Virus record (IMG/VR): IMGVR_UViG_3300042894_002524
Coordinates: 1-64,000 of that record
Strand: one strand, 5' to 3'
Length of the DNA: 64,000 nt
From: a virus
Shown here: positions 3 through 16,856 of the stretch, piece after piece
Position numbering within the stretch: the first letter of the stretch is position 1
Layout: each line of letters opens with the position of its first letter
The notes under the pieces: generated by a model
Databases searched by the model: none
What the model saw: only the letters and a program-made list of their open reading frames with translations
What the model was told of the DNA's origin: nothing
Made by a program: the position numbers and the translations under genes

Positions 3-52
3 ACGCCATCTTGTTTAGGTTTACTTTTCGGATAAATTGAGTATGCGCTCAA
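3..52 (-). repeat. Dispersed 42-bp conserved motif, copy A, plus hairpin TTGAG-TATGCG-CTCAA
   Basis: Aligns without gaps to 8579-8620 and 15450-15491; 27/42 positions identical in all three copies. Confidence 0.8.
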
Positions 53-88
53 ATCTATGTGCCTTTCTTTATTTGTTTTTGGGTATAG

Positions 89-144
89 AAAAAGAGATTA
101 AGCATAGGAAGGAATATCCAGTAACGACCTATGCTTAATCTCTT
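89..144 (-). terminator. Intrinsic terminator-like hairpin directly 3' of tRNA-Arg
   Basis: Perfect 17-bp inverted repeat 92-108/128-144 with a 19-nt loop, running into a T-tract on the minus strand. Confidence 0.75.
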
Positions 145-146
145 AG

Positions 147-218
147 TGCTTCCATTAGGATTCGAACCTAAAATAACGGATTAGAAGTCCGTAGTTATAT
201 CCATTTAACTATAGAAGC
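147..218 (-). tRNA. tRNA-Arg, anticodon UCU; CCA not encoded
   Basis: Minus strand GCTTCTA...TGGAAGC-A acceptor stem; anticodon arm ACGGA-CTTCTAA-TCCGT; T-arm TTAGG-TTCGAAT-CCTAA. Confidence 0.95.
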
Positions 219-302
219 TGAATGACATATTGATTGATTTTATTCACACATATGTCAGGTATGAGGTTTTACGGTATCAATCAACCGTTACTTATCGCCT
301 AC

Positions 303-971
303 TTATGAGAGATGTTTATATTTCTCGTATTCAGCAATGAGATATTTCCTGTATTTGCTCATAAACTTATTGTAAACAGAATCTGTATATGGTCCAAAGT
401 AACCATCTACAAACTTAACGCCAATAAGTTTTTGTATACCAAATACATACTTACTTCTTTCGCCAAGATGATATTTGCGAAGAATTGTTTTTGCAGGGAA
501 TTTTTTAAACAACACAGGATTTCCAACATTCTTTTTACAACCCCAGCCTCCAAAGCCAACTGGTTGTCTAAAGAAAGGTCTATTCTTTTGTCTATCTTCA
601 AATGTTCTGAACTCATTTTTGGTTTGATATCCCTGAGTTGAGATTCTGTTTGCAACAATAATTTGTTCATCTATTGTTGCAAGTTCTGGTTTGGATGCGA
701 ATTCTTTTCCACCATATCCACTCCAAGTTTGTTTATAAATACCTAAACCACCTGACCATTGACCTTTATCTTTCCAATCGCCTCCGGTTTCACATTGAGC
801 CATTCTATGCCAATATATATCCAAAGCTCTTGGCTTTCCAAGTTCACTGAAAGTTAGTTGAGGTATTTCCGTAGGAACTGTATTAACTTTTGCCGAGGCA
901 TTAGTTGCAACAATTCCTGTAATTAATGTTGCACATAACAACATGTTTTTTATTTTATTTTTAGTTTTCAT
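303..971 (-). CDS. Secreted resuscitation-promoting factor (Rpf)-family lytic transglycosylase with a degenerate C-terminal peptidoglycan-binding domain
   Basis: Signal peptide; WHRMAQCETGGDW...GGLGI...TW..YGG...EQIIVA...WGC matches the Rpf domain with its catalytic Glu; C-terminal VDGYFGPYT resembles PG_binding_1; SD AAGGAG. Confidence 0.85.
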   Translation of the reverse strand: MKTKNKIKNMLLCATLITGIVATNASAKVNTVPTEIPQLTFSELGKPRALDIYWHRMAQCETGGDWKDKGQWSGGLGIYKQTWSGYGGKEFASKPELATIDEQIIVANRISTQGYQTKNEFRTFEDRQKNRPFFRQPVGFGGWGCKKNVGNPVLFKKFPAKTILRKYHLGERSKYVFGIQKLIGVKFVDGYFGPYTDSVYNKFMSKYRKYLIAEYEKYKHLS

Positions 972-1177
972 TTTCGCTCCTTAAAACTTTTGGTTTTACG
1001 GGAAATTGATTGTATCTACAAACACATCAATTACCCGTATTAGCGTATTGCTAAGGTTGCGAAACAAGATTACTGCAAATTTTATAATGCTACTTGTTCC
1101 ACAAATTATATGTCAATCTACATCACCTCCTTAAAAGTAATCTATCTATTATACCTTATAGGTAATAACAGGCACAA
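972..1177 (-). promoter_or_regulatory. Promoter and structured 5' leader of the Rpf gene, with a perfect SD and an 8-codon uORF
   Basis: TTGTGC-18-TATAAT (1172-1177/1148-1153); TAAGGAGGTGAT at 1122-1133; uORF 1090-1116; stems 1057-1068/1093-1104, 1040-1054 and 997-1039. Confidence 0.6.
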
Positions 1178-1182
1178 TCTTG

Positions 1183-1770
1183 TTAGTTATCTTCAGACGC
1201 AGCAAGGGCTTTAGCTTTTTCTGATTCTTCTTGTCTTTTTCTGGACCACTCTATCATTGCCACATCTGATGAGCATGGTTTACCAAATTCGTAAGTCTCA
1301 GAATTCTCATCTGAGTATTTAAGAATCATCTCTGCTCTTTGATAAATCATCTTACCATCCTTGAAAAGATATCTGTAATAATCTTCAGCCTCTTCACCTT
1401 TCCATTGGATATAGCTTCCGTCTTTAACATAACCGGCAAAGCAAGATAAGAAATAATCTTCTGATCCAGCTTTATCCCAATAACCAAGACCAACTAAGTT
1501 ACCATTTTCATCAAACTCTAATTCAAATCCCAATGCATCAAAAATTGATTTCATATCTGGACAGGTTTCAGGATAATCATAAGCCATCCATGAAAACCAT
1601 TTCTTGCTATTATATCTTTGACCTTCTACTTGCTTTTCATCTCCACCATAAGAACCTCCACGCTTTAGGTCATCATAGTCATTGATTTCGCACATTCTTT
1701 TATAAACATCATCAAAGTGTTCTTTGTCTAGGAAGATATTTACATCTTCTGTTCCGATATAGTATCCCAT
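1183..1770 (-). CDS. Hypothetical phage protein
   Basis: 195-aa ORF in the minus-strand run. Confidence 0.75.
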   Translation of the reverse strand: MGYYIGTEDVNIFLDKEHFDDVYKRMCEINDYDDLKRGGSYGGDEKQVEGQRYNSKKWFSWMAYDYPETCPDMKSIFDALGFELEFDENGNLVGLGYWDKAGSEDYFLSCFAGYVKDGSYIQWKGEEAEDYYRYLFKDGKMIYQRAEMILKYSDENSETYEFGKPCSSDVAMIEWSRKRQEESEKAKALAASEDN

Positions 1771-1787
1771 TTTATTTTATCTTTCTA

Positions 1788-2147
1788 TTATTCTGGATCT
1801 TTAAACATTTCACGAATAAGTTTATTCGCATATTCTGGTCTATTACCTAACATCTTGGCTAACTTAACCCTGTTGATGTTGTAATAATCTACATATTCTT
1901 TAATCATCTCTTCTTTTTCAATACCTCTTTCTTCTGATAACAGAACTATCATCATAAACATATGAACCATTGAACCAAAGATAACTCCCGGCATAAATGC
2001 TGGATTATCCATTGCTTCTGATTGGTAAGAGTCCATCAATTGAGATAGATTATCTTGACTGTTATCTGATACATGTGCATTAAATATTTGTAAAGCAAAG
2101 TCTGTGAATAGGTTATCTTTGTGTTCTTTAAAAGGGTCAATTCTCAT
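1788..2147 (-). CDS. Hypothetical protein (possible distant paralog of 6511-6879)
   Basis: 119-aa ORF; shares DNP...H..MM...EKE pattern. Confidence 0.7.
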   Translation of the reverse strand: MRIDPFKEHKDNLFTDFALQIFNAHVSDNSQDNLSQLMDSYQSEAMDNPAFMPGVIFGSMVHMFMMIVLLSEERGIEKEEMIKEYVDYYNINRVKLAKMLGNRPEYANKLIREMFKDPE

Positions 2148-2185
2148 TTTTTGTACCTATTCAATTTTATCACCTATTCGTATGA

Positions 2186-2407
2186 TTATCTCATTTTACC
2201 TAAGAGGTAGAAAAATACATCTGATTTAGCGTCATTATCAAGTTTCAATAAGAAAATTTTATTAGCCTCATCAATAAGTGTAGCTTTGAATTCAAAATCT
2301 GTTGAGAAAATCTCTAATAGAAATACGATTGACTCGCACCACTTATAGAAATCATTATCATCAAGATATCTTTTCCAAGTTTCCAATATAGGTGTTAAAT
2401 TTGCCAT
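2186..2407 (-). CDS. Hypothetical protein
   Basis: 73-aa ORF packed against neighbours. Confidence 0.6.
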   Translation of the reverse strand: MANLTPILETWKRYLDDNDFYKWCESIVFLLEIFSTDFEFKATLIDEANKIFLLKLDNDAKSDVFFYLLGKMR

Positions 2408-2798
2408 AGTAATTGTTGTGTCCTTTCTTGTGAACTGTTGTGTGACAATTATTACATAATAAGATTAGGTTTTTCAAATCATCTGCACCATTTTCAGATA
2501 CAGGAATAATGTGATGAACCTCTCTTTCTTTTTCTTTAATAAGATTCAGGCATAACTTGCAGCTATTCCCATCTCTCTCATATACTTTTTGCTTTAATTC
2601 AATTGGAACCCCGTGTCGGAATTTACCATTCTTAATTTTCTTCTGTTGTCTTTTGTAATTTGCATTGGTTACTTTTTGATCAATTACTTGAATACATTTT
2701 TGATTTCCACAGCATCGCTTTCTACGATAAACCTCAGTTTTATTCGAGCCAAATCTTTCTGAACAACCAGCGCAAAGGACTATTCTATCCTTCACCAT
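2361..2798 (-). CDS. HNH endonuclease with N-terminal Cys-rich region
   Basis: RDGNSCKLC...EVHHIIP...G.DDLKNLILLCNNCH; likely start MVKDR at 2798. Confidence 0.9.
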   Translation of the reverse strand: MVKDRIVLCAGCSERFGSNKTEVYRRKRCCGNQKCIQVIDQKVTNANYKRQQKKIKNGKFRHGVPIELKQKVYERDGNSCKLCLNLIKEKEREVHHIIPVSENGADDLKNLILLCNNCHTTVHKKGHNNYYGKFNTYIGNLEKIS

Positions 2799-3165
2799 CT
2801 TTTTCTTCCTTATAAATAATTTTAACTTCACCATCAGATTCAAGACGACCAAATACTTCTTCATAATTCATAACATCATCTGGCGTTTTACCGTCAGCTA
2901 ATAGTTGTGAAAAGTATCCAAAATTCTTTGTAATCTCTCTATAAGTTAGTGAGTTTGGATTGTAAAAATATTCTTTCACTAGTCCGGGATCTTTTTGCCT
3001 TGTTGAATATTCAAAGATTCTTGCAAACCAGTTATCAGGTTTAAACCCGAATACTCTTTCACAAATCCTATTGGCTTTAGACATCGCTTCCTGAACAGTA
3101 GATACATCTTCTACTTTTACAGGATAACGATATTCAACAATAAAATAGTTTTCAAATTTAGGCAT
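2785..3165 (-). CDS. Hypothetical protein
   Basis: 126-aa ORF coupled to neighbours. Confidence 0.7.
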   Translation of the reverse strand: MPKFENYFIVEYRYPVKVEDVSTVQEAMSKANRICERVFGFKPDNWFARIFEYSTRQKDPGLVKEYFYNPNSLTYREITKNFGYFSQLLADGKTPDDVMNYEEVFGRLESDGEVKIIYKEEKDGEG

Positions 3166-3281
3166 TACTTAATACTTCCACCTAACATTAAAGCAAAGAC
3201 AAAGCCTAGCGTAATAACTGCTAATACTGGGAAAGCAACAAATACCAATATGATACAAATAGCCCAAGTTAATTTATCCAT
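3165..3281 (-). CDS. Small membrane protein (38 aa, not in ORF track)
   Basis: MDKLTWAICIILVFVAFPVLAVITLGFVFALMLGGSIK; fills the gap exactly with TAATG overlaps. Confidence 0.65.
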   Translation of the reverse strand: MDKLTWAICIILVFVAFPVLAVITLGFVFALMLGGSIK

Positions 3282-4966
3282 TACAAAATCTCCTTTATGA
3301 TTTCGAATTCTCCGTTAATAGGAACATACAGGTATTGACCTGATTTATCAATGAAGCAAGTTCCTGATTTCTCAATCGCTGATTTGCTACATTCAATAAT
3401 GAAACTCAATCCTCCAATACCAAGGATTGTTTTGCCAAGAATTTCAGAATACTCTGAATTATAGTTAAGGTTGGATACTGAAGACATTTTACTGATGGCA
3501 ATATAGGCACCACCAAACTTCTTTTCAAGGATGTTTTGTTTGTAATGTTCAACCATCAATCCACCAATTCTTGTATCTGCAATATTCCTAAATTCTCTGC
3601 CAATCATATCGGCTGAATCACCAACATTAGTGCTGTAATGATCAAATTCATGAATCAGTGTGCCAACAAGTTCCTGAATTGTTCCATTCTTGGCGTGATA
3701 TTTCTCAATGACAATACGCTTTTTGTTATCACCAATACTCACACACATTCCCATTACACCTTCTTTTTTACTTTCAAACACGCCAATTTCATTCTGTAGG
3801 GGAATGATTCCGGTCTCAAAAGATGATGCAATTTCAATTGCTTCAAGCAAACGAGGATATCCACTAATATCGTCATCAATTTCATAATCAACTTGTTCAC
3901 CCAAGATGTCAAAAAGAGATTTGATTTCCATTGATGATAAAATATTGTAAGCTGTTTTATTAGCTACAACAATTGGTTGATATCCACGACTAATAACAGC
4001 CAAACGAAGAGAATCTGAATTTTGATCACCATTAAGCATCACAGCTTTTTCGGTATAAAGATTATTCCAAGTTTTCTGCCAAACTTCGTGAGAGACATCG
4101 CTTCCGTGATATTTGAAGTTTTGATTAGCCAAACGATTCAGTTCCCAAATACCACTATCTTCTGCTTTAGCTCCCACAAACTCAGAAATATATTCTTCAG
4201 CAATATCTGGATTAGTGACACTGCAAATCATTTTGGATACATTATAGTCAAGATCCCATAATGATTTAACACTTCGCTCTTCATTTAGTTCAAGACTATC
4301 AAACTGATAATCAAAAATGGAATTACTTGTTTCATCATGCTTTACAAGAACATTTAGTGTATAAAATCTAGATGTATTATCAAACTTATCGAGAAGCTTG
4401 CCAAAATAATTATCAAACAACACTTCACGCTTTACAGAAAAGTATGCATCATAATCATTAACAATCTTCATTAGACTAGGAGATGCTGTAATATAAACAG
4501 AGAATATACCTTCACGAGGCTCAAGTTTTTTCATTGATTCCGGATCATCTGTATCAACAGTAATAACAAAAATGTTATACCATCCATCCTCATTTACTGT
4601 TGCTCCATCCATTGCATTAGCAATGGGTTCGCGTAAAATTTGGAATGGGTCTTCCCAAGACATTACTCCTGCTTCAAGAGTAAAAGAAGATGATTTAATT
4701 TGATCTCCATACTTATAAGCAATACACTCAACCCCATCTTCTTCTTGAACAATGTATTCAAGAGTGAATGGACCATTATTATCATTTCCGGTAAAGAACC
4801 ATTCAAGTCCATTCCTTAGTGCAGCAATTGGTGCATATTTAATTCCAGAACCAAATTGACCAATAGTCTTAGCGTCATTCCTCTTAGTAGAAAAACCTAG
4901 CTTTTCTAAAGAGATACGACTTACGGTTTCAGCTTTATTTGAGATTACAATATAATCTTTTAACAT
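3281..4966 (-). CDS. GHKL-type ATPase (motif order permuted) fused to a C-terminal HExxH metallopeptidase-like region
   Basis: LGFSTK...IGQFGSGIKYA (G-box, aa 35-41) precedes LREPIANAMD (N-box, aa 111-120); LIHEFDH near the C-terminus. Confidence 0.7.
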   Translation of the reverse strand: MLKDYIVISNKAETVSRISLEKLGFSTKRNDAKTIGQFGSGIKYAPIAALRNGLEWFFTGNDNNGPFTLEYIVQEEDGVECIAYKYGDQIKSSSFTLEAGVMSWEDPFQILREPIANAMDGATVNEDGWYNIFVITVDTDDPESMKKLEPREGIFSVYITASPSLMKIVNDYDAYFSVKREVLFDNYFGKLLDKFDNTSRFYTLNVLVKHDETSNSIFDYQFDSLELNEERSVKSLWDLDYNVSKMICSVTNPDIAEEYISEFVGAKAEDSGIWELNRLANQNFKYHGSDVSHEVWQKTWNNLYTEKAVMLNGDQNSDSLRLAVISRGYQPIVVANKTAYNILSSMEIKSLFDILGEQVDYEIDDDISGYPRLLEAIEIASSFETGIIPLQNEIGVFESKKEGVMGMCVSIGDNKKRIVIEKYHAKNGTIQELVGTLIHEFDHYSTNVGDSADMIGREFRNIADTRIGGLMVEHYKQNILEKKFGGAYIAISKMSSVSNLNYNSEYSEILGKTILGIGGLSFIIECSKSAIEKSGTCFIDKSGQYLYVPINGEFEIIKEIL

Positions 4967-4983
4967 TTTAATTTCCTTTGTAG

Positions 4984-5011
4984 AAAGAGGGGGGAATTGC
5001 TTCCCCCCTCT
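4984..5011 (-). terminator. Intrinsic terminator-like hairpin
   Basis: 11-bp stem AGAGGGGGGAA/TTCCCCCCTCT, 4-nt loop, short T-run on minus. Confidence 0.7.
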
Positions 5012-5026
5012 GATTTGTCTTTTTGT

Positions 5027-5659
5027 TTAGTAACCGATATCGTTTTCACGAGTCCACGGTGTAACTTCTGGGATAACAACAGCATTAGTCTGTGTAATAA
5101 TTTGTTGAGCTTTTTCATATTCAACATGGGCTGCATAACGCTCAAGATCAGCTTTGAATGTATCAAACATAAGGGGTTTGAGTTCTTCAATAACAGACTC
5201 TCTGATTTCTTCAGCCATTTTTTTCTTTTCAAGCCTTTCCAATGCTTTTGCAATATGTGCAACAAAATCATTATCTTTTAACAAAAGATAGCGAATAGCA
5301 TCTTCAATTGCGCCAGTAAAAGCTTGACCAGTGCTACAACTTGCTAATGGGCTATAGTTTTCAAGAAGGCTTCTGGCTTCACTTTCAGCATCAATTTCAA
5401 AATCGTCAGTATCGATGTAGTCTTTAAAATTAATATCTGAAAGAGCATCGGGTAATGCATTAGATACTTTACTATCAAAATCTAAGTTATAATCAATCCA
5501 TTGGTCAATGATTCCATCAAAATCATATGTTTCAATACGATTATCAATAATCTCAGACATATCAATATGATCTTGAATATCAATACTTCCAACTACTTTT
5601 TGAGCAAGCTTTTCGATAGCTTCATCATCTATTCCCATTGTTACATTTATATTTTCCAT
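5027..5659 (-). CDS. Acidic hypothetical protein with degenerate internal repeats and a C-terminal coiled coil
   Basis: 210 aa; Asp/Ile-rich N-terminal half; SD AAGGA. Confidence 0.75.
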   Translation of the reverse strand: MENINVTMGIDDEAIEKLAQKVVGSIDIQDHIDMSEIIDNRIETYDFDGIIDQWIDYNLDFDSKVSNALPDALSDINFKDYIDTDDFEIDAESEARSLLENYSPLASCSTGQAFTGAIEDAIRYLLLKDNDFVAHIAKALERLEKKKMAEEIRESVIEELKPLMFDTFKADLERYAAHVEYEKAQQIITQTNAVVIPEVTPWTRENDIGY

Positions 5660-5670
5660 TTTATTTTCCT

Positions 5671-6027: not shown

Positions 6028-6163
6028 TTCCTTCTTCTTTCTTTTGTTTATCTGTTTGTTTATTGTCTATTGATTTAGTTACGAATACCGGAACATGTAA
6101 TATATCCCGTACATCCTTGTTTGTTATTTTACCTTCAAAATTAAGATTCATATCATCAGGCAT
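6020..6163 (-). CDS. Small hypothetical protein (47 aa, not in ORF track)
   Basis: MPDDMNLNFEGK...; fills the gap between WhiB and 5671-6027. Confidence 0.5.
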   Translation of the reverse strand: MPDDMNLNFEGKITNKDVRDILHVPVFVTKSIDNKQTDKQKKEEGNE

Positions 6164-6509
6164 TATTACCCTCCACGAATATTGTATTTTTGAATGCATC
6201 TTTTACTTGCAATACTGTTTTATTAACCATTGCTTCTGCTTGTGCTTTTGTTATTTCATTGGTTTTCAAATGATTTCGGATTGATGCTCTTTCTTTAGAA
6301 GAAAAAGAACCCCAAACCCCAAACCTTTCATCATTGTTAATCGAATACTGTAAGCAATCAGCAACAACAGGACAGCTTTTACAAAATGTTTTTGCTTTGG
6401 CTATGATCTTTTTTGTTTCTGCTGTATAAACAGTATCGGCATAGAATAAATGTGCTCCTTGTCCTAAACAAGCAGCTTCATCTAACCAATTAATTGTAAT
6501 TGTTGACAT
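6156..6509 (-). CDS. whiB: WhiB-family Fe-S transcription factor
   Basis: WLDEAAC...LF...AKTFCKSCPVVADCLQY...FGVWGS...ER; four Cys; likely start MSTIT at 6509. Confidence 0.92.
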   Translation of the reverse strand: MSTITINWLDEAACLGQGAHLFYADTVYTAETKKIIAKAKTFCKSCPVVADCLQYSINNDERFGVWGSFSSKERASIRNHLKTNEITKAQAEAMVNKTVLQVKDAFKNTIFVEGNNA

Positions 6510-6510
6510 A

Positions 6511-6879
6511 TTAATTATCCCAGATTGGAATATTTGGACCATCATCTATCATTGGTTTAATAACTGAATTATCATAACCGGATAAATACATTTCTTTTTC
6601 ACCATTGATTGTCATCATCATCATACAAATATGAGAACATAATGCACTAACAACATCTAACGATTTCTCGTGGATTTCATTAGGGTTATCAATTGACATA
6701 TTGATCATATGCATAATAAAAGATGCACGACTTTCGTGATTATCAAAATCAGTTTCTTTGATGATTCTCGTAATCGTCATCATATGGTTTAGAAAATCTT
6801 GGTCTTCAATCATATAATCTGGAGCCTCCTTTCTTTCACTAGGTTTTTGTATATTATCAAAATCATCCATACTGAACAT
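6511..6879 (-). CDS. Hypothetical protein
   Basis: 122-aa Met-rich ORF. Confidence 0.7.
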   Translation of the reverse strand: MFSMDDFDNIQKPSERKEAPDYMIEDQDFLNHMMTITRIIKETDFDNHESRASFIMHMINMSIDNPNEIHEKSLDVVSALCSHICMMMMTINGEKEMYLSGYDNSVIKPMIDDGPNIPIWDN

Positions 6880-6883
6880 TTAT

Positions 6884-7818: not shown

Positions 7819-7849
7819 TATTGTTTTTCCTTTTATTGTTGTTTTGTTG

Positions 7850-8428
7850 TTAAATCCAGCCTAGAGAATCTTCTAGGCATTTTCTTATATTACTCATATC
7901 AGCAGATTCCTGATATATAATTTCACCATTATGTACTGTCAAAGCACCGTGAAATCCCATTCCACCTTCTTCATAATAAATATGAAAAGAAAGTGTTTTA
8001 TATTCATCTCGACAAAAAGCTTCAGCTAAACTTTCATCACCCGGACCCCAAGGAGTTGAGTATTCCATTACAACAAGTTTCTCGCCCGTTTCTTCAGCTA
8101 CTTTCTTATCGTAATTATATTTTGTAACAAGTTCATCACTAAGAATACAGCCATCGCTAATATCCCATTTAACTCCCCAATTAGCATTACACCAAGAATA
8201 CCAATCTTTATGACCATATTTTTCAAAGCAAAGCTTTTCATTATCTGACCAATCTTTTTCTTCTTTGGTCATACTTGCTGGTTCATCACTGTATTCAGTT
8301 GGCATTGGAATAAGTGCATTAAAAAGACTAAGTTCATCTTGTTTAACAGATTTAATCTTTTCCATGAATTTATCCACATCTTCAGGTGGACCTTGTATTT
8401 CTAATGTGTTCATACACCAGTTAGGCAT
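7850..8428 (-). CDS. DUF1281/YubB ferredoxin-like phage protein
   Basis: MPNWCMNTLEI.G...F.ALIPMP...DWYSW...NWGVKWD...TPW.P...YEE.GM.F.G. Confidence 0.8.
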   Translation of the reverse strand: MPNWCMNTLEIQGPPEDVDKFMEKIKSVKQDELSLFNALIPMPTEYSDEPASMTKEEKDWSDNEKLCFEKYGHKDWYSWCNANWGVKWDISDGCILSDELVTKYNYDKKVAEETGEKLVVMEYSTPWGPGDESLAEAFCRDEYKTLSFHIYYEEGGMGFHGALTVHNGEIIYQESADMSNIRKCLEDSLGWI

Positions 8429-8578
8429 TTTCTTCTTCTTTCTCTTTCTCGAAAAGTTCATCCCAAGATGACTTTACATATTTAACATTTCCATTTTCAT
8501 CGACATATGCTGTCAATACCATTGATGCACTAAATAGTGCGCTATTTTGGTTTTCCATTTATCTTTCCTTTTAGACTT

Positions 8579-8631
8579 ACGCCCGTTGATTTATCTTTAT
8601 TTTTTGGTGAATTTTAGTATGCGCTAAAATT
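8579..8631 (-). repeat. Dispersed 42-bp conserved motif, copy B, plus hairpin ATTTTAG-TATGCG-CTAAAAT
   Basis: Intergenic; gap-free alignment to copies A and C. Confidence 0.8.
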
Positions 8632-8637
8632 GAATGT

Positions 8638-8940
8638 TTACTCTCCGGCTTCACAATAACCACAAAGAATGTCTGGTCCCCACCAAGAACCAATGAATTT
8701 ACCATGCTTACAATATTGGCTTCTATCTGATCTATCCCAATCATATTCATCACCAATTTCATAATCATCATCAATTGCCTGATGGACTTGATTAAGTCTT
8801 AATGTCATTAAATCCATGTAGTCTTGAACCGAAATACCTTTAAGATGAGCTTGGTATTCAATATCCAATGCTGCATCGGCTTCCATTTCCAATTCTTCAT
8901 GTGTTAGCTCACGCTCTTTGTTTTCATATTCCAAGTTCAT
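8638..8940 (-). CDS. Hypothetical protein with a C-terminal Zn-binding motif
   Basis: CKHG...LCGYCE. Confidence 0.7.
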   Translation of the reverse strand: MNLEYENKERELTHEELEMEADAALDIEYQAHLKGISVQDYMDLMTLRLNQVHQAIDDDYEIGDEYDWDRSDRSQYCKHGKFIGSWWGPDILCGYCEAGE

Positions 8941-9178: not shown

Positions 9179-9363
9179 TTTCTGCTCTCCTTAAGCTTTT
9201 CTATTAACCAAGTTGCTAGGATAAAGTTCGGATGATTTGAATTATTAATTCCAATGTTCCGGGTTAGCCAACCCAAATCATCAAACCTCATCTTTGGTAT
9301 ATCCATATTTTCTAAGACACGGTGTAATTCCGTTCTTACTTCTTTTATTTGTATTTCGTTCAT
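9175..9363 (-). CDS. Hypothetical protein
   Basis: 62 aa; ATGA and TAATG overlaps with neighbours. Confidence 0.65.
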   Translation of the reverse strand: MNEIQIKEVRTELHRVLENMDIPKMRFDDLGWLTRNIGINNSNHPNFILATWLIEKLKESRK

Positions 9364-10067
9364 TAATCCTCAAATAGTTTTAATTGATTAGGGTTTTCTT
9401 TTCTTGTAGAAATTCTTTCCATACCGTTTTGGTCTGTCCATTCATTCCATTCTTCAGTTGCTTCATCGTTCCAATATTGCAAACTATAAACGGCATACTT
9501 AATATCATCATCCTTTGGATATTGTTCACCATCTACATCGAATTCAATGTTCATATTTGCTGTCAATTCATAGTAGATATCTTCACCATAATTTGGAACA
9601 TTAGTGTCGATCATGTTTTCTAGATAATCTGGCAAATCATAAAGGCAACCAATTGCTTCCTTATATAATCTATTGTGATAATCCTCTTCATCATAAACAG
9701 GGTAATCGCTTAGTTTATCTTTACAAGACATAGCTTTTTTAAAAGCATCTGTAATATTGTCTAACTCAACATTGGCTTCTTGCTTTAGAATACGACAAAT
9801 CAAACGGTCAATTGAACCACAAGCCCAATGGCTATAGTTTTCAATTCTAAAATCATCCGGATAATCATCTATTAGTTCTTGAGAAATTGTTTCAAAGTTT
9901 GAGATATCCATAATACTAGAATCTCTTGTTTTATCAATTCCACAAAAACCCCAAGTTACAAAAGTATCTTCTGGACCCCAATAACCAAAATCTTCTGGTT
10001 TGGTTAAGGCATCAGTTGCACAACGAACAAGGTTTTCCGAATATACAAAAGTATCATTCATATTCAT
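9363..10067 (-). CDS. Acidic hypothetical phage protein
   Basis: 234 aa; RDS....SNF...HWACG...LSDYPV.DE. Confidence 0.8.
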   Translation of the reverse strand: MNMNDTFVYSENLVRCATDALTKPEDFGYWGPEDTFVTWGFCGIDKTRDSSIMDISNFETISQELIDDYPDDFRIENYSHWACGSIDRLICRILKQEANVELDNITDAFKKAMSCKDKLSDYPVYDEEDYHNRLYKEAIGCLYDLPDYLENMIDTNVPNYGEDIYYELTANMNIEFDVDGEQYPKDDDIKYAVYSLQYWNDEATEEWNEWTDQNGMERISTRKENPNQLKLFED

Positions 10068-10605
10068 AGTGTCCTAATTCTTGAAGGAGGTATTTTGCTT
10101 CTTCAAAATCAAATTCTCTATCAATATCAATAACTCCATTAGCAACATCTCTAATAACATACGCTGCAGCTATATTTGTTATATTCTTATAGCAATCTTC
10201 ATATTCATCAAGTTCAAAACCAAATTTATCAAAATAATCTGTCCACACAGTATCGATACTTGTTAAGAAAAGATTTCGCCCTTCCATTCCGGTTAGATCT
10301 AACCACTCTAATGCTCTATCTTCAATTGACTTTCCACCTTGAAGAAGAGCAATGGGTTTAAAATTATCTTTCATTGCAGTTGCCCATCCAGCAATACAAC
10401 AAGCAGTTCCACAATCTAAAGGTTCTAGTGTTTTAGTATTCTGTTCACTATTATGAATAATAGGATAAGAATCAGTTGACCAATAAGGTTTACCATTCCA
10501 CATGCCTTGTTCTATTTTTGTAGAAAGCCAATATTGCATTTCAAATTTGTGTTCTGGAAGACTTTCAATGTAGTCTGCCAGTTTTAACATTCTTTCCTTA
10601 TTCAT
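10054..10605 (-). CDS. Hypothetical phage protein (CGTACCIAGW family)
   Basis: MNKERMLKLAD...F.M..W...CGTACCIAGWA. Confidence 0.8.
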   Translation of the reverse strand: MNKERMLKLADYIESLPEHKFEMQYWLSTKIEQGMWNGKPYWSTDSYPIIHNSEQNTKTLEPLDCGTACCIAGWATAMKDNFKPIALLQGGKSIEDRALEWLDLTGMEGRNLFLTSIDTVWTDYFDKFGFELDEYEDCYKNITNIAAAYVIRDVANGVIDIDREFDFEEAKYLLQELGHYEYE

Positions 10606-10704
10606 TTAGATGTCCTTTCATCTGTTGCTTCATTAATCATCATTGCTAATCCAATGAATACTATTGGTACTACAATCAAAAATATAATTGCAATACTAAA
10701 TACC

Positions 10705-11049
10705 TTAATCATTTAGTACTCCTAATTCTTCCATTGCTACTTTGTCCCATCTTTCGGGTAATCTTTTTTCAATATCATAAACACAGATATTAGCTTCTTC
10801 ATTCTCTGTATTCCAATACATACAAACTTCACCATATGTTCCAAAATCATGTTGAAACCATTTTTTCTTGAAGTTGATATTATTACTTAAAGCTTCTGGA
10901 AATAACCTTTCCAATAGACTGATATAAGTATCCATTTCTTTTTCAGCACGATTTTTGTAATCATCTGAACCAACTTGAGCACAAGGCTCATCATATGGCG
11001 TTGAGCCAATTTCCATATATTCTCTCATTAGATATACCTTCCATTCCAA
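10705..11049 (-). CDS. Conserved-type hypothetical phage protein
   Basis: IGSTPYDEPCAQVG...HDFGTYGEV...PERWD. Confidence 0.8.
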   Translation of the reverse strand: MEWKVYLMREYMEIGSTPYDEPCAQVGSDDYKNRAEKEMDTYISLLERLFPEALSNNINFKKKWFQHDFGTYGEVCMYWNTENEEANICVYDIEKRLPERWDKVAMEELGVLND

Positions 11050-11222
11050 TCTTTATCATTATCATATTCTTCGTCATAATCAAGTGAATTGACTTCAACT
11101 AAACTTCCTTCGCAAATTATGCAATATCCAGTCTCTGTCTTTTCGTGATATAACTCACCACAAGATTTACATTCATAATTAAATGTCTTCATGAGTGCAT
11201 TTCCTTTTCCCATAAGAACCAA
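11028..11222 (-). CDS. Small Zn-ribbon protein
   Basis: YECKSCG...CIICEG; real start probably MKTFNYE. Confidence 0.6.
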   Translation of the reverse strand: MVLMGKGNALMKTFNYECKSCGELYHEKTETGYCIICEGSLVEVNSLDYDEEYDNDKDWNGRYI

Positions 11223-11359
11223 TCAATATTAATTGATAAGTCAAGGCTTTCATCATATTCTTCAATTTCTTCTCTTTTGGGGAATTTAATCAAACCATCT
11301 TTTAACCAAAGATTCTCGATGTACTCTTCTAATTTGTTTTCTGGGGTCATAATTTTCCT

Positions 11360-11587
11360 TTATATTTCGTGTGTTACTTTAACAATGTTTTTATCTTTTA
11401 ACCAATGCAATCTTAAAACCATACAATTATATTTGGCTGACTTTTCAATTACTTTTCTAAGAGCTTTTCTTTCTGCTTCTGTTTTAGCAACAGTTTCAAT
11501 TGATAAGCATCCTCCGGATTTCATATTAGATATTTTTTTATGAATATCTATTTCAAACTCATTTGTGAACCTAAGATTTTCATTCAT
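11360..11587 (-). CDS. Hypothetical protein
   Basis: ORF track 11360-11629; likely start MNENL. Confidence 0.55.
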   Translation of the reverse strand: MNENLRFTNEFEIDIHKKISNMKSGGCLSIETVAKTEAERKALRKVIEKSAKYNCMVLRLHWLKDKNIVKVTHEI

Positions 11588-11867
11588 TTCCAACATAAGA
11601 ATCAATTTCCTCTTCTTCATCTTCATCAATTTCTACGAACATTTCATTCCAACATTTAGGATGCGTTCCACTAATCAACATTTCACGCTCTTCTTTTGGA
11701 ATATGCGGAAAAATATCTTGGACATATGCTGTTTTTTCAACATAAGCTTCATGTTGGCGATATGTCATATTAATAACAATCCAATTGTTACACCAAGAAC
11801 AATGTTTTGTAATTGAAAATAGTGCTTTTTCGTGTTCAGTTGTAAAATCATAAATATCAGTTGACAT
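11580..11867 (-). CDS. Zn-binding hypothetical phage protein
   Basis: CSWC...VQDIFP....EEREMLISGTHPKCW; likely start MSTDI. Confidence 0.75.
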   Translation of the reverse strand: MSTDIYDFTTEHEKALFSITKHCSWCNNWIVINMTYRQHEAYVEKTAYVQDIFPHIPKEEREMLISGTHPKCWNEMFVEIDEDEEEEIDSYVGNE

Positions 11868-12123
11868 TTGCTTCTTCTTTCTTTCTATTAAATAATTCGG
11901 GGTTTTTCTTTTGGAGTTCATCATATGGGTTATACCACCATTCATCATATGACGCTACAAATGGATTAATTAACAATTCTACAAAACAGTGAATTCGTTC
12001 TGCATTTGCAATAGTTCCATAAAATAGATCTAGTTCTTCATAACTATCAAATGGACCAAAAAATACTCTATCAGTTGATCTAGTATGATGTAATATCCAT
12101 TGATACTTGGGTTTGTCTTTCAT
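11857..12123 (-). CDS. Hypothetical protein
   Basis: 88 aa, tightly packed. Confidence 0.65.
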   Translation of the reverse strand: MKDKPKYQWILHHTRSTDRVFFGPFDSYEELDLFYGTIANAERIHCFVELLINPFVASYDEWWYNPYDELQKKNPELFNRKKEEANVN

Positions 12124-12428
12124 TATTGTTTTCTCATTTCTTCAATAGCATTTTGCAATACTTCAACACATTCAGTTTCAGTTCCACCAATGTGCCATTC
12201 ATATTTGAAAAATGGAGTTTCTCCTAATTTCCAATCATAAATGGTGCAGTATTTGCTTTCGTTATATTCCAACACCCATTCACAAGTTGTTTTATCTCCA
12301 TCAACAGAATTAGGTCCATAATCAGGTTCACCAAATGTTTTCACTAATTCTTCATATGTGGCTATTACATAGCCTTGTAAACAAGTACCACTTGCGTTTG
12401 CTTCATCTGTTCTTTTAATATTGTTCAT
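12123..12428 (-). CDS. Conserved-type hypothetical phage protein
   Basis: GTCLQG...TYEELV..FGEP...DK...EW...TIYDWK...WHIGG. Confidence 0.8.
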   Translation of the reverse strand: MNNIKRTDEANASGTCLQGYVIATYEELVKTFGEPDYGPNSVDGDKTTCEWVLEYNESKYCTIYDWKLGETPFFKYEWHIGGTETECVEVLQNAIEEMRKQ

Positions 12429-12429
12429 A

Positions 12430-12711
12430 TTACTTTCTTTCTACTACTACTTTAGCTTCATATGAAACCCTCTTTGAGGGATTATCATATGCTAAAGATC
12501 CGGGTTGAGCTTTTGACATAAGTGGTAATTCATCTCTGTAGATAAAAACAACTATACCATTAACTTCAATGTCTAATCGATATCCTTCATATCCAATAAA
12601 ATCAGCAATTGCTTCTTCTACCGTATCAAAAAAGGTAACGACACCATTTTGATTTCTTGTTGCGTATGGAGTATCTTTCATAAGATATTCCTCTGGGATT
12701 TCATCAATCAT
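12430..12711 (-). CDS. Hypothetical protein
   Basis: 93 aa, tightly packed. Confidence 0.65.
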   Translation of the reverse strand: MIDEIPEEYLMKDTPYATRNQNGVVTFFDTVEEAIADFIGYEGYRLDIEVNGIVVFIYRDELPLMSKAQPGSLAYDNPSKRVSYEAKVVVERK

Positions 12712-12913
12712 TGTTTTCTTCTTTCATTTCGTATTGCTCTGTTTCCATTGTTTCATAATCTGTAATTGAAATAAACTCTACAATTTCAGAATCGTTTGTT
12801 TTTTTGCCAATATTTTCAATTGACCAAGCTTTTGCACTTTCCATACTTGAAAAATGTAAATTTTTCATATATTTTCCAGTATCACTAGATACTCTTGTTT
12901 TTGCTATTATCAT
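12704..12913 (-). CDS. Hypothetical protein
   Basis: 69 aa, tightly packed. Confidence 0.6.
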   Translation of the reverse strand: MIIAKTRVSSDTGKYMKNLHFSSMESAKAWSIENIGKKTNDSEIVEFISITDYETMETEQYEMKEENND

Positions 12914-12914
12914 T

Positions 12915-13163
12915 TTAATCCTCCATTGTGTAGTCGTTTGTTACATCTTCATTAATCATAAAGACTCTTTCTTTCATTTTTTGTTCAATGCATTCATCAC
13001 AAATCCAAATAAGCATTTGAGAAAGATCAAATTTGGAACCATAACCACCTTCAATCAAGACTTCAATTGCATCTTCTGGACTCATTAAGGAACTTTTTCC
13101 AAATGTTAAATAAGTAATTTGTTTTCCACAAGAAAAACAAGGACATACTGTAACCATTTCCAT
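12915..13163 (-). CDS. Zn-binding hypothetical protein
   Basis: CFSCGK...GGYGSKFD...ICDEC. Confidence 0.7.
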   Translation of the reverse strand: MEMVTVCPCFSCGKQITYLTFGKSSLMSPEDAIEVLIEGGYGSKFDLSQMLIWICDECIEQKMKERVFMINEDVTNDYTMED

Positions 13164-13531
13164 TATTTGACCTCCAAATACTCAGGGAATTTTTTATAAA
13201 ACAAAAATGTTCTAATCTGATACAACATCATTTGATGTACATAGTTAGAAGCAATGCCCATTTTTATTGCACTGCCTACTCTTTTGTTTTGACTAAGGTT
13301 TTTAATTGCAGAGTCTTTAACTCTTTGTGCATAAAAACATTCTCTATCTTTTTTGATATGAAAAGAATTAATTGTTTTAACAATTTCTTTTCCAATTGTT
13401 TTATTTCCAGATTTTGAATTAACTCCATAATCAGCAGAAAGGAAAACTTTAATTTCGTCTTCCTTCAATTGATATGAAACAAAATCGGGGTGTATTGACA
13501 ATTGATAATTTGTAAATTCTTCATAATCCAT
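13163..13531 (-). CDS. Hypothetical protein
   Basis: 122 aa; SD AGGAG. Confidence 0.65.
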   Translation of the reverse strand: MDYEEFTNYQLSIHPDFVSYQLKEDEIKVFLSADYGVNSKSGNKTIGKEIVKTINSFHIKKDRECFYAQRVKDSAIKNLSQNKRVGSAIKMGIASNYVHQMMLYQIRTFLFYKKFPEYLEVK

Positions 13532-13534
13532 TGT

Positions 13535-13765
13535 TTAATCTCCTGTTTGTAACATGTCTGCTCTAACATTTAAGTCTCGCAGTTCGCTTTTCTTTATCCA
13601 AAAGTAATTGCATTTATGCAATAATGCCGGAGTATAAACTTTCCGGAATTCTCTTTCTCTTTCATCAAGACCAATTCGATTACATACTTCATCTAAGCAA
13701 TAATCATAACCAGCTTCATATCTTTCTTCAATAAATTCATTATTGCAGATTTTACAAGTTGCCAT
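13535..13765 (-). CDS. Small C4 Zn-finger protein
   Basis: CKIC...ERYEAGY.YC...C. Confidence 0.7.
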   Translation of the reverse strand: MATCKICNNEFIEERYEAGYDYCLDEVCNRIGLDEREREFRKVYTPALLHKCNYFWIKKSELRDLNVRADMLQTGD

Positions 13766-13774
13766 TATTTTCTC

Positions 13775-14176
13775 CTATTCCGTTTCGTACAATTTACTAA
13801 ACTTATCCAAAAAAGATTTGTTTATATCTGAGTAATCAAATTCACTTAGATACTCACCAACTTCATTGTATGTTTGTATTCCATCTAATATTTCAATTGC
13901 ATATTTATCTAACAGATGATCAAATGATTCATTTGACATTCCCATACAAAAAGCAAGATTTTCTATCTTTTCGCCTAATGAATCGAGTTCTGTTATAACT
14001 AAGTCTCTGACCCAGCACACTTCATCTAAACCATCACCATAATGTTTACCTTCATCATCACAGTATCTTTCGATTTCTTTTTCTATCCGGCTTAGTTGTT
14101 TACTAAGAATATAATTTAAATCATGATAAGTTTTCATAATAATGTGTGTTTTTAAGTTTGTATTTTGTTGGGACAT
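13775..14176 (-). CDS. Hypothetical protein
   Basis: 133 aa acidic ORF. Confidence 0.65.
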   Translation of the reverse strand: MSQQNTNLKTHIIMKTYHDLNYILSKQLSRIEKEIERYCDDEGKHYGDGLDEVCWVRDLVITELDSLGEKIENLAFCMGMSNESFDHLLDKYAIEILDGIQTYNEVGEYLSEFDYSDINKSFLDKFSKLYETE

Positions 14177-14212
14177 TGGTTATCACCATTCTTTCTATTT
14201 GTTTTTAAACAC

Positions 14213-14242
14213 AAAAAAGGCAATAGGAATACCTATTGCCTT
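14213..14242 (-). terminator. Intrinsic terminator
   Basis: AAGGCAATAGG/CCTATTGCCTT 11-bp stem followed by a T-run on minus. Confidence 0.8.
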
Positions 14243-14273
14243 GCTAATGTTTAGTTTTTGTTTATTGATTAAT

Positions 14274-14636
14274 TTAGATTAACCATTGTATTTGCCATTT
14301 ATGATTGTCCATCTCTACAATCATAATTTCACGATCCATTACTAATTCTTTCATCAATTCAAGTTGAAATTTGATTAGTTCTTGTTTATACTCTTTATTT
14401 AGAACACGAGTAAGGTCATCATAATCTACATCAAAAAGAATTCCTAATTTCATATCTTTACGAATAGCATTACGAGCAAGTGAAACTTTGAGTTTACTAC
14501 CGTCATCATTTCCCCAATAAGTTCTGTTTTCTAATGGAGTATCAAAAAGAGATTTGGTTTTCTTTTTTCCTCCATTTCGACCACGAGATACAATTTTGTT
14601 TTGAATTGAGTTGAGGTTTACTTTTTCGTTAGACAT
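14274..14636 (-). CDS. Basic hypothetical protein
   Basis: Likely start MSNEK with SD AAGGAG. Confidence 0.7.
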   Translation of the reverse strand: MSNEKVNLNSIQNKIVSRGRNGGKKKTKSLFDTPLENRTYWGNDDGSKLKVSLARNAIRKDMKLGILFDVDYDDLTRVLNKEYKQELIKFQLELMKELVMDREIMIVEMDNHKWQIQWLI

Positions 14637-15183
14637 TTGAATTCTCCTTGTTTTCAGCAATCTTATTTTCTAGGGATACGATTTGTTCTGGGGTAAGAAT
14701 TTGATCAATATTACGGTATTCTTCAGGAAATCTATCACCTGTTGATGTATGTGAAGTAATACTAATAACTTCACCATTGTCAAACTTAGCATTATTGTTG
14801 ATAGCTTGGCTCATAATTGGAGTAGGATTACGCTTACGCTTTGGACCAAATACAGCATTAGAATATGCTGTACCATCAGGATAACCGACAGGAAGAACTT
14901 CAACATTATCGTCACGGTTCTCATTATCAATTACATTCTGATTCATTCTAACTTGACGCAAAGCGTGAAGAATAACATTAGCATTGAATTCTTTACCAAG
15001 ATTAGTAATGCATTTGTAATAAATTTCGGAATTTGTAACAACAGCAACTATTTCACAAATGTAACCATAATCATTATCATTATCTGATATTTCTATGCCC
15101 ATCAATTGGTCAACAATAAGGTCATACTTTGACTTTACATTTTGCTCTGGTTTTGTATTTAGATTAGACATAAAGTCCTCCAA
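14629..15183 (-). CDS. Hypothetical protein, first gene of the AT-rich block
   Basis: 184-aa ORF; GGAGG before MSNLN suggests the real start is 15171. Confidence 0.7.
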   Translation of the reverse strand: MEDFMSNLNTKPEQNVKSKYDLIVDQLMGIEISDNDNDYGYICEIVAVVTNSEIYYKCITNLGKEFNANVILHALRQVRMNQNVIDNENRDDNVEVLPVGYPDGTAYSNAVFGPKRKRNPTPIMSQAINNNAKFDNGEVISITSHTSTGDRFPEEYRNIDQILTPEQIVSLENKIAENKENSNV

Positions 15184-15449
15184 TAATAAATTATTTATAT
15201 TTACTTATAGTTACGAATAAACATAAGAATAAAATTTCATATTCAAACTATTCGGAAACTATGAACAAAGTGTATCGCCAAAAATAATGAAATCAAACAT
15301 GGGCCAAGAAAATGTTAGAAAAAACTTTTATTGTGCGCCAGAAAGTAAATCGAGAAGATCGTGATAGTTAAGCTCTTTGTAAATAGTTTATTAAAGCCGG
15401 CGATCAAGGATCGGGAATGCTTGATATTAAATCATTTAATAAAGTTTGA

Positions 15450-15491
15450 ACGCCCCACTGTTTAGATTTACTTTTCAGCGAATTTTAGTAT
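15450..15491 (-). repeat. Dispersed 42-bp conserved motif, copy C
   Basis: Gap-free alignment to copies A and B; lies in the longest non-coding interval (15184-15525). Confidence 0.8.
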
Positions 15492-16792: not shown

Positions 16793-16856
16793 TTTGATCT
16801 CCTATTAGGTTGATTTGATTTGTTCTGATTGAATGGCTTACGCCCTTGGAATAGAA

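Follow-up and report, generated by a model that had tools for sequence, protein, structure and literature searches.

At the middle promoters of phage T4 a MotA box takes the place of the -35 and AsiA remodels region 4 of sigma-70; the WhiB proteins are a family known to bind region 4 of sigma-A. The start-associated sequences (SAS) of Cluster K mycobacteriophages and the L5-like stoperators are 13-14 bp long and present in a dozen to ~30 copies, the SAS overlapping the ribosome-binding site 3-8 bp upstream of the start codon. The promoter-early stem-loop (PeSL) of the T4-type phages is composed of a terminator stem-loop and an early promoter and is found in many copies (Arbiol et al., 2010, PMC2839356; Comeau et al., 2014, PMC4122927). 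Promoters of actinobacterial SigA and of mycobacteriophages have an ANNNT -10 located 6-13 nt before the start and no strict -35 (PMC6448022; Cluster O phages, PMC4351075); in mycobacteria ANNNT is the dominant -10 and suffices as one (PMC6448022).

The element analysed here is most likely of a familiar kind and not of a new one. It was found in a window of 64,000 nucleotides from an uncultured lake phage, a siphovirus infecting Actinobacteria, and consists of three 42-bp copies read on the minus strand: copy A at 3..44 (gene-sense reading ATACTCAATTTATCCGAAAAGTAAACCTAAACAAGATGGCGT, with the contig stopping 2 nt beyond), copy B at 8579..8620 (GGGCGT and then AAGTCTAAAAGGAAAGATAAATG) and copy C at 15450..15491, 34 nt after the stop of a 285-aa glycosyltransferase-like gene. 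Realigning them without gaps we recovered what the initial annotation had reported, namely identity of all three in 27 of the 42 columns (29/42, 32/42 and 31/42 in the pairwise comparisons) and spacings of 8576 and 6871 bp. The claim that there is no further copy also holds: the consensus, searched with up to 3 mismatches, matches only A, B and C in the window, the three sites are alone in the whole 89,827-bp contig and all on the same strand, and a profile HMM gives exactly three strong matches in each related genome. Chance matches in shuffled DNA, a danger that the annotation had named, occurred in none of 100 dinucleotide shuffles of the window searched with the same consensus and threshold.

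The motif occurs only in one small lineage of lake phages, where orthologous copies were found in 4 viral genomes or contigs and 5 metagenome contigs. Their variation affects 18 of 45 columns in which the paralogs A, B and C vary and only 1 of 81 in which they are invariant (Fisher p=8.9e-9). This skew indicates sequence-specific recognition, and the motif is under strong position-specific purifying selection. What had been proposed was a phage-specific cis-element system, and the orthologs, in which the motif is present and constrained, bear this out. ATACT is invariant across all 14 distinct ortholog sequences and so are the A and the T of ANNNT, with AAANNT at gene-strand motif positions 23-28 in 14/14 distinct copies; the sole indel seen is in copy B of the relative G002, where it lengthens the proposed spacer to 18 nt.

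Each copy heads one of three blocks of small genes, mostly of unknown function, in what is presumably the early region. Block C covers ~15.2-8.6 kb, block B 8.6-0.3 kb, and block A lies beyond the contig end. Copies A and B are placed 20-25 nt upstream of the SD and ATG belonging to the run's first gene, copy B occupying a 79-nt gap between a 100-aa gene (8638-8940) and a 45-aa ORF (8421-8558), and copy C is followed by ~280-300 nt of non-coding DNA before the next gene. Copy A had been described as following a tRNA terminator at the window edge. A tRNA-Arg (TCT) gene (146..218, minus strand) and a strong intrinsic terminator with a 16-bp stem and TTTTTCT (93..143, minus strand) do precede it, the terminator ~48 nt upstream on the gene strand; the edge is that of the window, whose beginning coincides with the end of an incomplete contig, and not that of the genome. 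In the relatives copy A is followed ~20 nt on by SD and ATG and then by a 7.4-kb run of small genes. Because copy A sits just past a strong terminator, block A needs a start signal of its own. The block headed by copy B includes a WhiB-family gene (6156..6545, minus strand; PF02467, E=4e-17), which, judged by its sequence, marks the host as actinobacterial and whose product is a candidate partner of sigma-A region 4.

On the minus strand the motif reads YATACT-N17-AAANNT, then ~7 nt and GGCGT, with the SD and ATG ~20 nt further on in copies A and B. The proposed -35-type boxes are CATACT in A (40..45) and B (8616-8621) and TATACT in C (15487-15492). The proposed -10 hexamers, read from the sequence as being of the ANNNT type, are AAACCT in A (17..22), AAAGAT in B (8593-8598) and AAATCT in C (15464-15469), all on the minus strand, and putative start sites ~6-8 nt past them would lie at 9-11, 8585-8587 and 15456-15458, respectively. 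The initial annotation had compared minus-strand YATACT to a -10. In the reading given here YATACT, which is not TTGACA-like, would instead occupy a -35-type position, 17 nt upstream of the invariant AAANNT. ATAC[A/T] is found at the same spacing in 8 other promoters of the phage whose starts are anchored by a leaderless ATG; the leaderless head promoter at G000 84776-84739 is TATACT-N17-TAAAAT-N6-ATG, and the related G001 has six promoters of the form TTGNATACA-N17-TATAGT-N6-ATG. A layout common to the leaderless promoters means that YATACT fits a -35-type box and not a -10. Read on the gene strand, the motif thus has two features of promoters of the sigma-70/SigA type, an upstream element 16-18 nt from the proposed -10 and a sense position ahead of a transcription unit, copy C being ~300 nt off in the latter respect.

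We give about an even chance to the reading that the three copies are sense promoters for three small-gene operons, possibly factor-dependent and specific to the lineage. What the sequences show directly is the copies with their selection and position, the layout that they share with other promoters of the phage, and the homology breakpoints; we infer on which strand such promoters act, where they start, which polymerase or factor uses them and when. The host sigma-A RNA polymerase would transcribe from a site made up of YATACT as a -35-type box, a conserved A/T-rich spacer of 17 nt and AAANNT as an ANNNT-type -10, and would start ~6-8 nt past the -10, i.e. 2-4 nt before GGCGT, to give short SD-led mRNAs for the successive operons C, B (with WhiB) and A. 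A sigma factor or RNA polymerase of the phage itself did not turn up in ~90 ORFs tested, which counts against this reading. A phage factor may also touch the site, as the extra invariant positions in the spacer and in GGCGT suggest. Among the three mechanisms offered by the initial annotation the promoter or regulator option is the best supported, with a different anatomy in which YATACT would be of the -35 type and AAANNT the -10.

The motif resembles the SigA promoters in its ANNNT -10, and the same phage has textbook leaderless TANNNT-N6-ATG promoters. It differs from them in a conservation that extends over 42 bp, including the spacer and the surroundings of +1, and in AAANNT and YATACT; this is more than SigA recognition requires. 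Several observations speak against a promoter. AAANNT is a weaker -10 than TANNNT and YATACT is not the canonical TTGACA; the invariant AA, TT, C, AAAA and GGCGT are without a role in a plain sigma-70-type promoter; and copy C is ~300 nt away from the next gene. Furthermore, G001 has four boxes of a related kind (GCGCATACTCAA ... GGNGT, again spanning 42 bp) which are antisense to the local genes and have no -10 at the right distance, so the ends common to both may be a protein-binding site and not promoter elements. In favour of a promoter, a part of the motif is also found at a sigma-A-like promoter (16835..16885, minus strand) with TTGCAA (16885-16880), a 17-nt spacer, TACTAT (16862-16857) and GGGCGTAAGCC (16845-16835), which carries downstream the common element GGGCGNAAGCC. 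That the end of copy B recurs close to 16857-16885 had been noticed before, and it does so as GGGCGTAAG at 16845-16837 on the minus strand, downstream of this sigma-70-like promoter. In the relatives the counterpart of GGGCGTAAGCC is GGGCG(T/A/C)AAGCC, a GNRA-type mini-hairpin.

Like the PeSL, the motif is a short conserved composite intergenic cassette that, in variable regions, heads small ORFs without known function; it stays constant in non-homologous flanks, with indels or replacements starting at its edge, and in some copies a stem-loop adjoins the promoter-like part. Homology among the relatives ends 10-25 nt downstream of each copy, where several independent assemblies also stop: the breakpoint 10 nt past copy B is an indel of the 45-aa ORF, at the one 23 nt past copy C the variant L115 carries 1.2 kb of unrelated DNA, and after copy A identity falls. 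Since the cassette is constant while its flanks vary, it would also act as a junction for gene-cassette exchange among related phages. The differences are that neither the sequence nor the phage group is related (here a siphovirus of Actinobacteria, there a T4-like myovirus), that there are 3 copies and not many, that the promoter part departs from the canonical early promoter of sigma-70, and that the stem-loop, which lacks a U-run, is weak at ~-3 to -9 kcal/mol, is dispensable and overlaps the proposed -35 box, is not a separate terminator. The motif was not accepted as a T4-type composite of terminator and early promoter, as the stem-loop is, moreover, missing in copy C and in three orthologs of copy B. 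With the SAS and stoperators it has in common that these are asymmetric, repeated intergenic actinophage motifs with an orientation fixed relative to transcription. However, it is 42 bp long and present in three copies, and it is not a Cluster K SAS: it ends 15-20 nt before the SD in A and B and ~300 nt from the gene in C.

An extension of the promoter reading, rather unlikely as a whole, hypothesizes that the YATACT/NATACA box is a phage-wide promoter code. A phage factor, which could be the WhiB-family protein on sigma-A region 4 or the MerR-like protein, would replace recognition of the -35, and the three 42-bp cassettes would form a separate temporal sub-class with extra contacts in the spacer and GGCGT that switches on the hyperplastic small-gene operons. 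If so, the WhiB encoded in one of these operons would form a feed-forward loop, the antisense boxes of the other arm would serve that factor as decoys or for silencing, and the system would be akin to the sigma appropriation at T4 middle promoters. The suggested logic, a host-type -10 with a phage-specific box at -35 in a phage which encodes WhiB, is indeed that of the T4 middle promoters, but a MotA or AsiA homolog was not found in the lake phage, and the box is also present in the promoters heading both arms, which, if used first, fire without phage proteins.

It is possible, though unlikely, that the motif is not itself a promoter and serves as an operator or regulator site. The constant ends GCGCATACT and GGCGT, 32 nt apart, would be bound by a DNA-binding protein of the phage, which would gate read-through or nearby promoters at the operon boundaries in whatever orientation; putative binders include a MerR-family HTH regulator (36474..36932, minus strand), the 118-aa protein encoded at 16436-16792 and a complex of WhiB with sigma-A. 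Sequence-specific selection is consistent with this, and the antisense boxes of G001 repeat both ends four more times over the same 42-bp span with a different, GC-rich middle. Three palindromic AGTATACT boxes clustered in a divergent control region (G000 84771-84834) are operator-like. On the other hand, block A needs a promoter past the terminator and no other is visible in the 100 nt available, and between A, B and C the middle AAAARTAAANNTAAA is no more variable than the ends, which binding at two ends leaves unexplained.

A promoter on the plus strand, the orientation in which the motif was originally given, we find decidedly unlikely. KAGTAT (TAGTAT/GAGTAT) would be the -10 and the conserved T-rich 36 nt upstream an UP element or activator site, and the RNA made would be antisense to the preceding blocks of small genes at their 3' ends. 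By sequence such a -10 is equally legal, since ANNNT and the AGTAT/ATACT core are identical on both strands; there are three other ANNNT registers on each strand of the motif. A2 and T6 of KAGTAT are invariant, the start would come after all conserved sequence, the usual arrangement in promoters, and the GC-rich boxes of G001 are sense on that strand, each just past an intrinsic terminator. The persisting hairpin (copy B of G001 and G002) needs G-U pairs found on the plus strand only, but the support for this hairpin is not significant. A conserved -35-type element at 16-18 nt is absent on the plus strand, the leftward boxes have all-pyrimidine start regions, and downstream there is no ORF or conserved product, the 31-aa ORF after A being unconserved and B giving M-R-stop; a purpose of three antisense promoters at operon heads is not evident.

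The hairpin brings us to the models in which the motif acts as RNA within a polycistronic transcript, which are very unlikely. They postulate antitermination of the nut/put type or else a processing cassette, in which cleavage would fall in a single-stranded A/U-rich zone past an upstream hairpin, and a small 5' hairpin (GGC-GNAA-GCC) would shield the downstream mRNA. Copies A and B do have a hairpin followed by an unstructured A-rich stretch, and the GGC-GNAA-GCY mini-hairpin at the 3' edge is seen again at 16845-16835, where the relatives vary in the loop only. A "covarying hairpin" had been claimed. Its stems and TATGCG loop are present on the plus strand of copy A (TTGAG-TATGCG-CTCAA, 37..52) and copy B (ATTTTAG/CTAAAAT, 8611-8630); it is absent from copy C and from the copy B orthologs of G003, L099 and L151. 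The covariation is not significant, its score being reached by 33 of 500 shuffles, and pairing in the 16 distinct copies amounts to 72.9% of cells against 69.2% in shuffles (reached by 31/500). Folding energies are no better than those of shuffles (z +0.67 to -1.32), and Rfam at the gathering threshold gave only tRNAs in the three motif loci and 40 kb of G001. Few copies near operon starts and a hairpin beside a conserved linear segment recall lambda nut and HK022 put, but this hairpin is unconserved and there is neither a boxA/boxB organisation nor a stable two-stem put-like fold; with no significant structure, covariation or Rfam match the nut/put-like proposal has no support. Moreover, 27 invariant unstructured positions are far more constraint than known RNase E-type sites or boxA elements need, which counts against any such RNA element.

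Hardly credible is a DNA-transaction signal, be it for packaging, for DNA entry (which nothing specific supports), for nicking of one strand or simply as a hotspot of recombination: the homology breakpoints, and the independent contigs and Logan contigs which stop within ~25 nt of the GGCGT edge at all three copies, would suit it, but G001, G002 and a 19-kb contig of run X2 continue unbroken across A, B and C, variants that occur together, alike in the motif and then diverging (such as L115 and the 45-aa ORF indel), account for the breaks, and the same-strand orientation across two arms is a single binary coincidence.

Directly downstream of copy C a non-coding stretch of ~120 nt (15330..15449, minus strand) is more conserved than the flanking genes, with 1-4 variable columns per 40 compared to 4-12 in coding DNA.

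The contig (89,827 bp, from IMG/VR, bases 1-64000 forming the window) is estimated to be 86% complete and derives from a large siphovirus, which encodes a 3967-aa tape measure protein, a family-A-like DNA polymerase and a large terminase besides portal, protease, capsid, helicase, primase and SSB. The minus strand, here called the gene strand, carries every gene from 84.5 kb to base 1. The WhiB-family gene (6156-6545), the Rpf-like transglycosylase gene (303-971) and textbook leaderless promoters point to an actinobacterial host. Near-identical DNA was met in lake or freshwater metagenomes (20 runs), and there are lakes in which the DNA depth of the phage comes to 10-40x. A run of small genes, nearly all of them without family matches, occupies the first 17 kb of the window. 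The phage also encodes a MerR-like protein (36474-36932) and a 118-aa protein (16436-16792).

The initial annotation placed three intergenic 42-mers in this run, and copies A (3-44), B (8579-8620) and C (15450-15491) were indeed found there; they align without gaps and 27 columns are identical in all three. A degenerate consensus with ≤3 mismatches finds only these sites in the window and gives 0 matches in 100 dinucleotide shuffles; in the whole contig it finds just the same three, all on one strand. With a profile HMM each related genome has exactly three strong matches (E < 1e-9) and nothing comparable elsewhere. Exact-pattern scans confine the motif to a small lineage (8 IMG/VR contigs and 5 metagenome contigs), and relaxed half-motif scans outside the lineage gave chance matches in Lys-rich coding sequence only. 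For the 203-aa gene that follows copy B there are distant homologs in unrelated phages (23-29% identity), which are without such a motif, and comparative power is therefore limited to one lineage.

In the relative G001 (100 kb, 96% complete) the orthologs of copies C, B and A lie at 30.4, 37.1 and 45.6 kb, and synteny indicates that the 16.6 kb following copy A in G001 is simply missing from our contig. In G001 copy A is followed by a Shine-Dalgarno sequence (SD) and an ATG within about 20 nt and then by a 7.4-kb run of small plus-sense genes, so that each copy heads a block of small genes of about 7-8 kb. Selection was tested by defining the 27 invariant positions from the three paralogs of the window and scoring them over 14 distinct ortholog sequences. 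Only 1/81 paralog-invariant columns varies among the orthologs, compared with 18/45 paralog-variable ones (Fisher p=8.9e-9). Copy A is the best-conserved 60 nt within ±350 nt in the five genomes compared, and copy C with the following ~120 nt is more conserved than the flanking genes. From the selection and the local conservation it follows that the element is functional and read base by base. A helical (10-11 bp) periodicity of the invariant positions was not significant (permutation p=0.15-0.25). The ~120 nt directly downstream of copy C (15330-15449) are non-coding, nearly invariant across nine relatives, and contain two small hairpins (ATCAAG/CTTGAT and TATTAAAT/ATTTAATA).

The most likely reading, to which we give about an even chance, takes the motif for a sense promoter cassette that is specific to the lineage, is probably assisted by a factor, serves three operons of small genes and doubles as a recombination joint. 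On the gene strand it reads YATACT - MAAWTTNNCYRAAAART (17 nt) - AAANNT - AAAYNN(N) - (G)GGCGT, followed in copies A and B by AAR-N3-CTAAAAGGA (SD) and an ATG about 20 nt past GGCGT. Among the hexamer registers with invariant A2 and T6, AAANNT (positions 23-28) is alone in being preceded, at a distance of exactly 17 nt, by another invariant block, ATACT, and the sole indel observed lies inside this spacer (18 nt in copy B of the relative G002). The same layout of ATAC box, 17 nt and -10 recurs in other promoters of the phage, in which a leaderless start codon fixes the start point. These are the promoter at the head of the long arm (TATACT-N17-TAAAAT-N6-ATG, positions 84776-84739 of the whole contig, G000), its divergent partner (TATACT-N17-AAGCAT) and six promoters in the leftward arm of G001 (TTGNATACA-N17-TATAGT, or TAATAT or TATTAT, then N6 and ATG or GTG). 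In Mycobacterium smegmatis ANNNT is found at -13 to -6 in 79% of the mapped promoters and a -35 consensus is absent (PMC6448022).

A clear sigma-A-like promoter, TTGCAA-N17-TAYTAT at 16885-16857, is conserved in 11 relatives. It is followed after 11 nt by GGGCGTAAGCC (16835-16845), which is GGGCG(T/A/C)AAGCC in the relatives, that is, a 3-bp stem with a GNRA-type tetraloop in which the loop N is the only variable base; it may be a 5'-terminal mRNA hairpin. The recurrence of GGGCGTAAG at this place (16845-16837), already pointed out in the initial annotation, was confirmed, and a similar end, GGC-GTAA(A)-GYY, is found in copies A and B. Based on the motif anatomy, the layout common to the other promoters and the recurrence of the mini-hairpin, the motif would supply a sense promoter of about -36 to +7, and transcripts of the phage would plausibly begin just before the GGC-GNAA-type mini-hairpin.

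Other promoter assignments were considered and rejected. YATACT as the -10 is without a conserved element 16-18 nt upstream and is not the best register, and TAAAAT (positions 5-10) fails as a -10, since copy A and three of the copy B orthologs read TCAATT or TCAAAT there. The consensus sequences of ECF-type, sigma-54, SPO1 gp28 or gp33/34 and Bacteroidetes promoters, compared by eye, misfit in spacing and sequence. A generic sigma-70 scan was uninformative (91 sites vs 91.6 in shuffles). Hairpin promoters for a virion RNA polymerase (N4 or crAss type) were discarded, the 3967-aa ORF being the tape measure protein and no phage RNA polymerase or sigma factor being found among the ~90 ORFs tested.

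A pure operator is an unlikely alternative. For many of the invariant positions of copies A-C a plain SigA promoter has no use. The pattern ACNCC-N31-KAGTAT has six occurrences in G001, every one on the strand matching the plus strand of the window, the chance expectation being 1.2 for both strands together. Three of the sites are copies A-C; the other three, and a degenerate fourth, lie in the leftward arm and have the 14-mer TTGAGTATGCGCTC in common with copy A. Each of these boxes is preceded by an intrinsic terminator and followed by a covarying stem-loop and a leaderless promoter; judged by the sense-promoter orientation of A-C they are antisense to the local genes, and a -10 at 17 nt is missing from them. 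These boxes suggest a protein-binding site that may consist of the two constant ends of the motif by themselves.

The next alternative, likewise improbable, is an antisense promoter on the plus strand with KAGTAT as its -10 and conserved sequence upstream. The sequence permits this, since ANNNT and the AGTAT/ATACT core are self-complementary. The plus-strand MRS... ORFs that start at AGTATGCGC are 2-37 aa long and not conserved, and are thus not genes.

That the motif acts as a signal in RNA is quite improbable. The covarying hairpin of the initial annotation is not supported: the stems around TATGCG are real in copies A and B of the window, but copy C has none and the covariation is not significant. 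The hairpin is lost in the copy B orthologs of G003, L099 and L151 (all related contigs), and it persists in copy B of G001 and G002 by G-U pairs existing solely on the plus strand, which is a hint, not a result. Over 16 distinct copies, the boxes in the other arm of G001 included, pairing is 72.9% vs 69.2% in shuffles, a level reached by 31/500 shuffles, and the covariation score was matched by 33/500. Neither the individual copies nor the 181 nt downstream of copy C fold better than shuffled sequence (z +0.67 to -1.32), and Rfam gave no match to the motif. For these reasons the element is treated as DNA-level. A flank-to-flank stem around copy C was also rejected: it lacks significance, and relatives have a G-to-C change without a compensating one.

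The part of the sense promoter cassette as a recombination joint concerns the homology among relatives, which breaks shortly downstream of every copy. After copy B the break comes at 10 nt: the 45-aa ORF (8421-8558) is absent from G002, G003, L099 and L151, and its deletion leaves a 7-codon mini-ORF (MKEEENA) whose stop has kept its overlap with the ATG of the following gene (ATGCCTAA), which suggests that translational coupling is preserved. From 23 nt after copy C the related contig L115 runs on with 1.2 kb without similarity to G000 or G001, and this replacement takes nearly all of the conserved stretch 15330-15449. G001 and the G002-type genomes have different first genes after copy A. Assemblies made independently of each other stop at the motif edges, our contig 2 nt past copy A and three IMG/VR contigs 14-21 nt past copy C; Logan contigs from two runs break at 8568-8585 or 8541/8576 and at 15449-15456, points which two other runs bridge. 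A DNA-transaction signal, to which such ends might be ascribed, is very improbable, since the breaks are accounted for, without physical DNA ends, by co-occurring variants which have the motif in common and differ beyond it, and a genome end or nick at the motif was rejected because other assemblies bridge all three copies. Contig bases 1-2 (TG) are unmatched by other assemblies, which read ...GGCGTAA on the gene strand, and are probably an assembly-end artefact.

We know of no experimentally defined regulatory signals in phages of the abundant uncultured low-GC freshwater Actinobacteria. The motif, validated and under strong selection, is now placed among ATAC box-17 nt--10 sites, leaderless starts and terminators, so that for a phage of this kind there is now a first map of transcription that can be tested, with concrete 60-bp parts as candidate promoters for trial in actinobacterial hosts. 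The closest analogues are, in T4-type phages, the promoter-early stem-loop (PeSL) cassettes (PMC2839356, PMC4122927) and, in actinophages, the SigA-like and leaderless promoters (PMC4351075). The motif is not a PeSL member in the strict sense, because it is without the terminator stem-loop; the coincidence of motif and homology breakpoint takes the PeSL idea, that regulatory cassettes are recombination joints for accessory genes, beyond the T4-like phages. It belongs to the known kind of conserved phage promoter/regulatory cassettes, a solid and useful result which is coherent, yet of the sort expected in phage genomes and not surprising.

Some further observations concern the surroundings. 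The small-gene blocks begin immediately downstream of the large terminase gene (17124-18863), which is unusually displaced: the portal gene (G000 79,309-80,949) shares its strand but is ~60 kb away. Strong intrinsic terminators lie in and between the blocks (14217-14242, 16389-16404, 4986-5011) and 1-19.5 kb is enriched in terminator-like sites (23 vs 7.5 expected); the blocks are therefore split into several transcription units. The divergent control region between the arms (G000 84,771-84,834) has three palindromic AGTATACT boxes, 26-30 bp apart, the outer two coinciding with the -35 positions of the two head promoters, a layout that looks like an operator array. The leftward arm in L023 (G001 54,200-58,400; missing from our contig) is unusually GC-rich and built of at least 6 repeated regulatory units in 4 kb, in the order GC hairpin with T8 terminator, ACNCC-N31-TTGAGTATGCGCTCTCTCTATACAC box, 35-38-nt stem-loop and leaderless promoter (TTGNATACA-N17-TATAGT-N6-ATG). 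Covariation is seen in the outer stem of the stem-loop (CTGGTGT/ACACCAG, CTGGCGT/ACGCCAG, CGGGCGT/ACGCCCG). A candidate origin of replication, or a control region acting in some other way at the DNA level, is the ~1 kb of non-coding DNA where the two arms converge (L023, G001 about 53,300-54,300); it contains three TGTGGATAA sites that resemble DnaA boxes, and several more repeats (CCCTTACCCTATATAT, CATAATTTGA).
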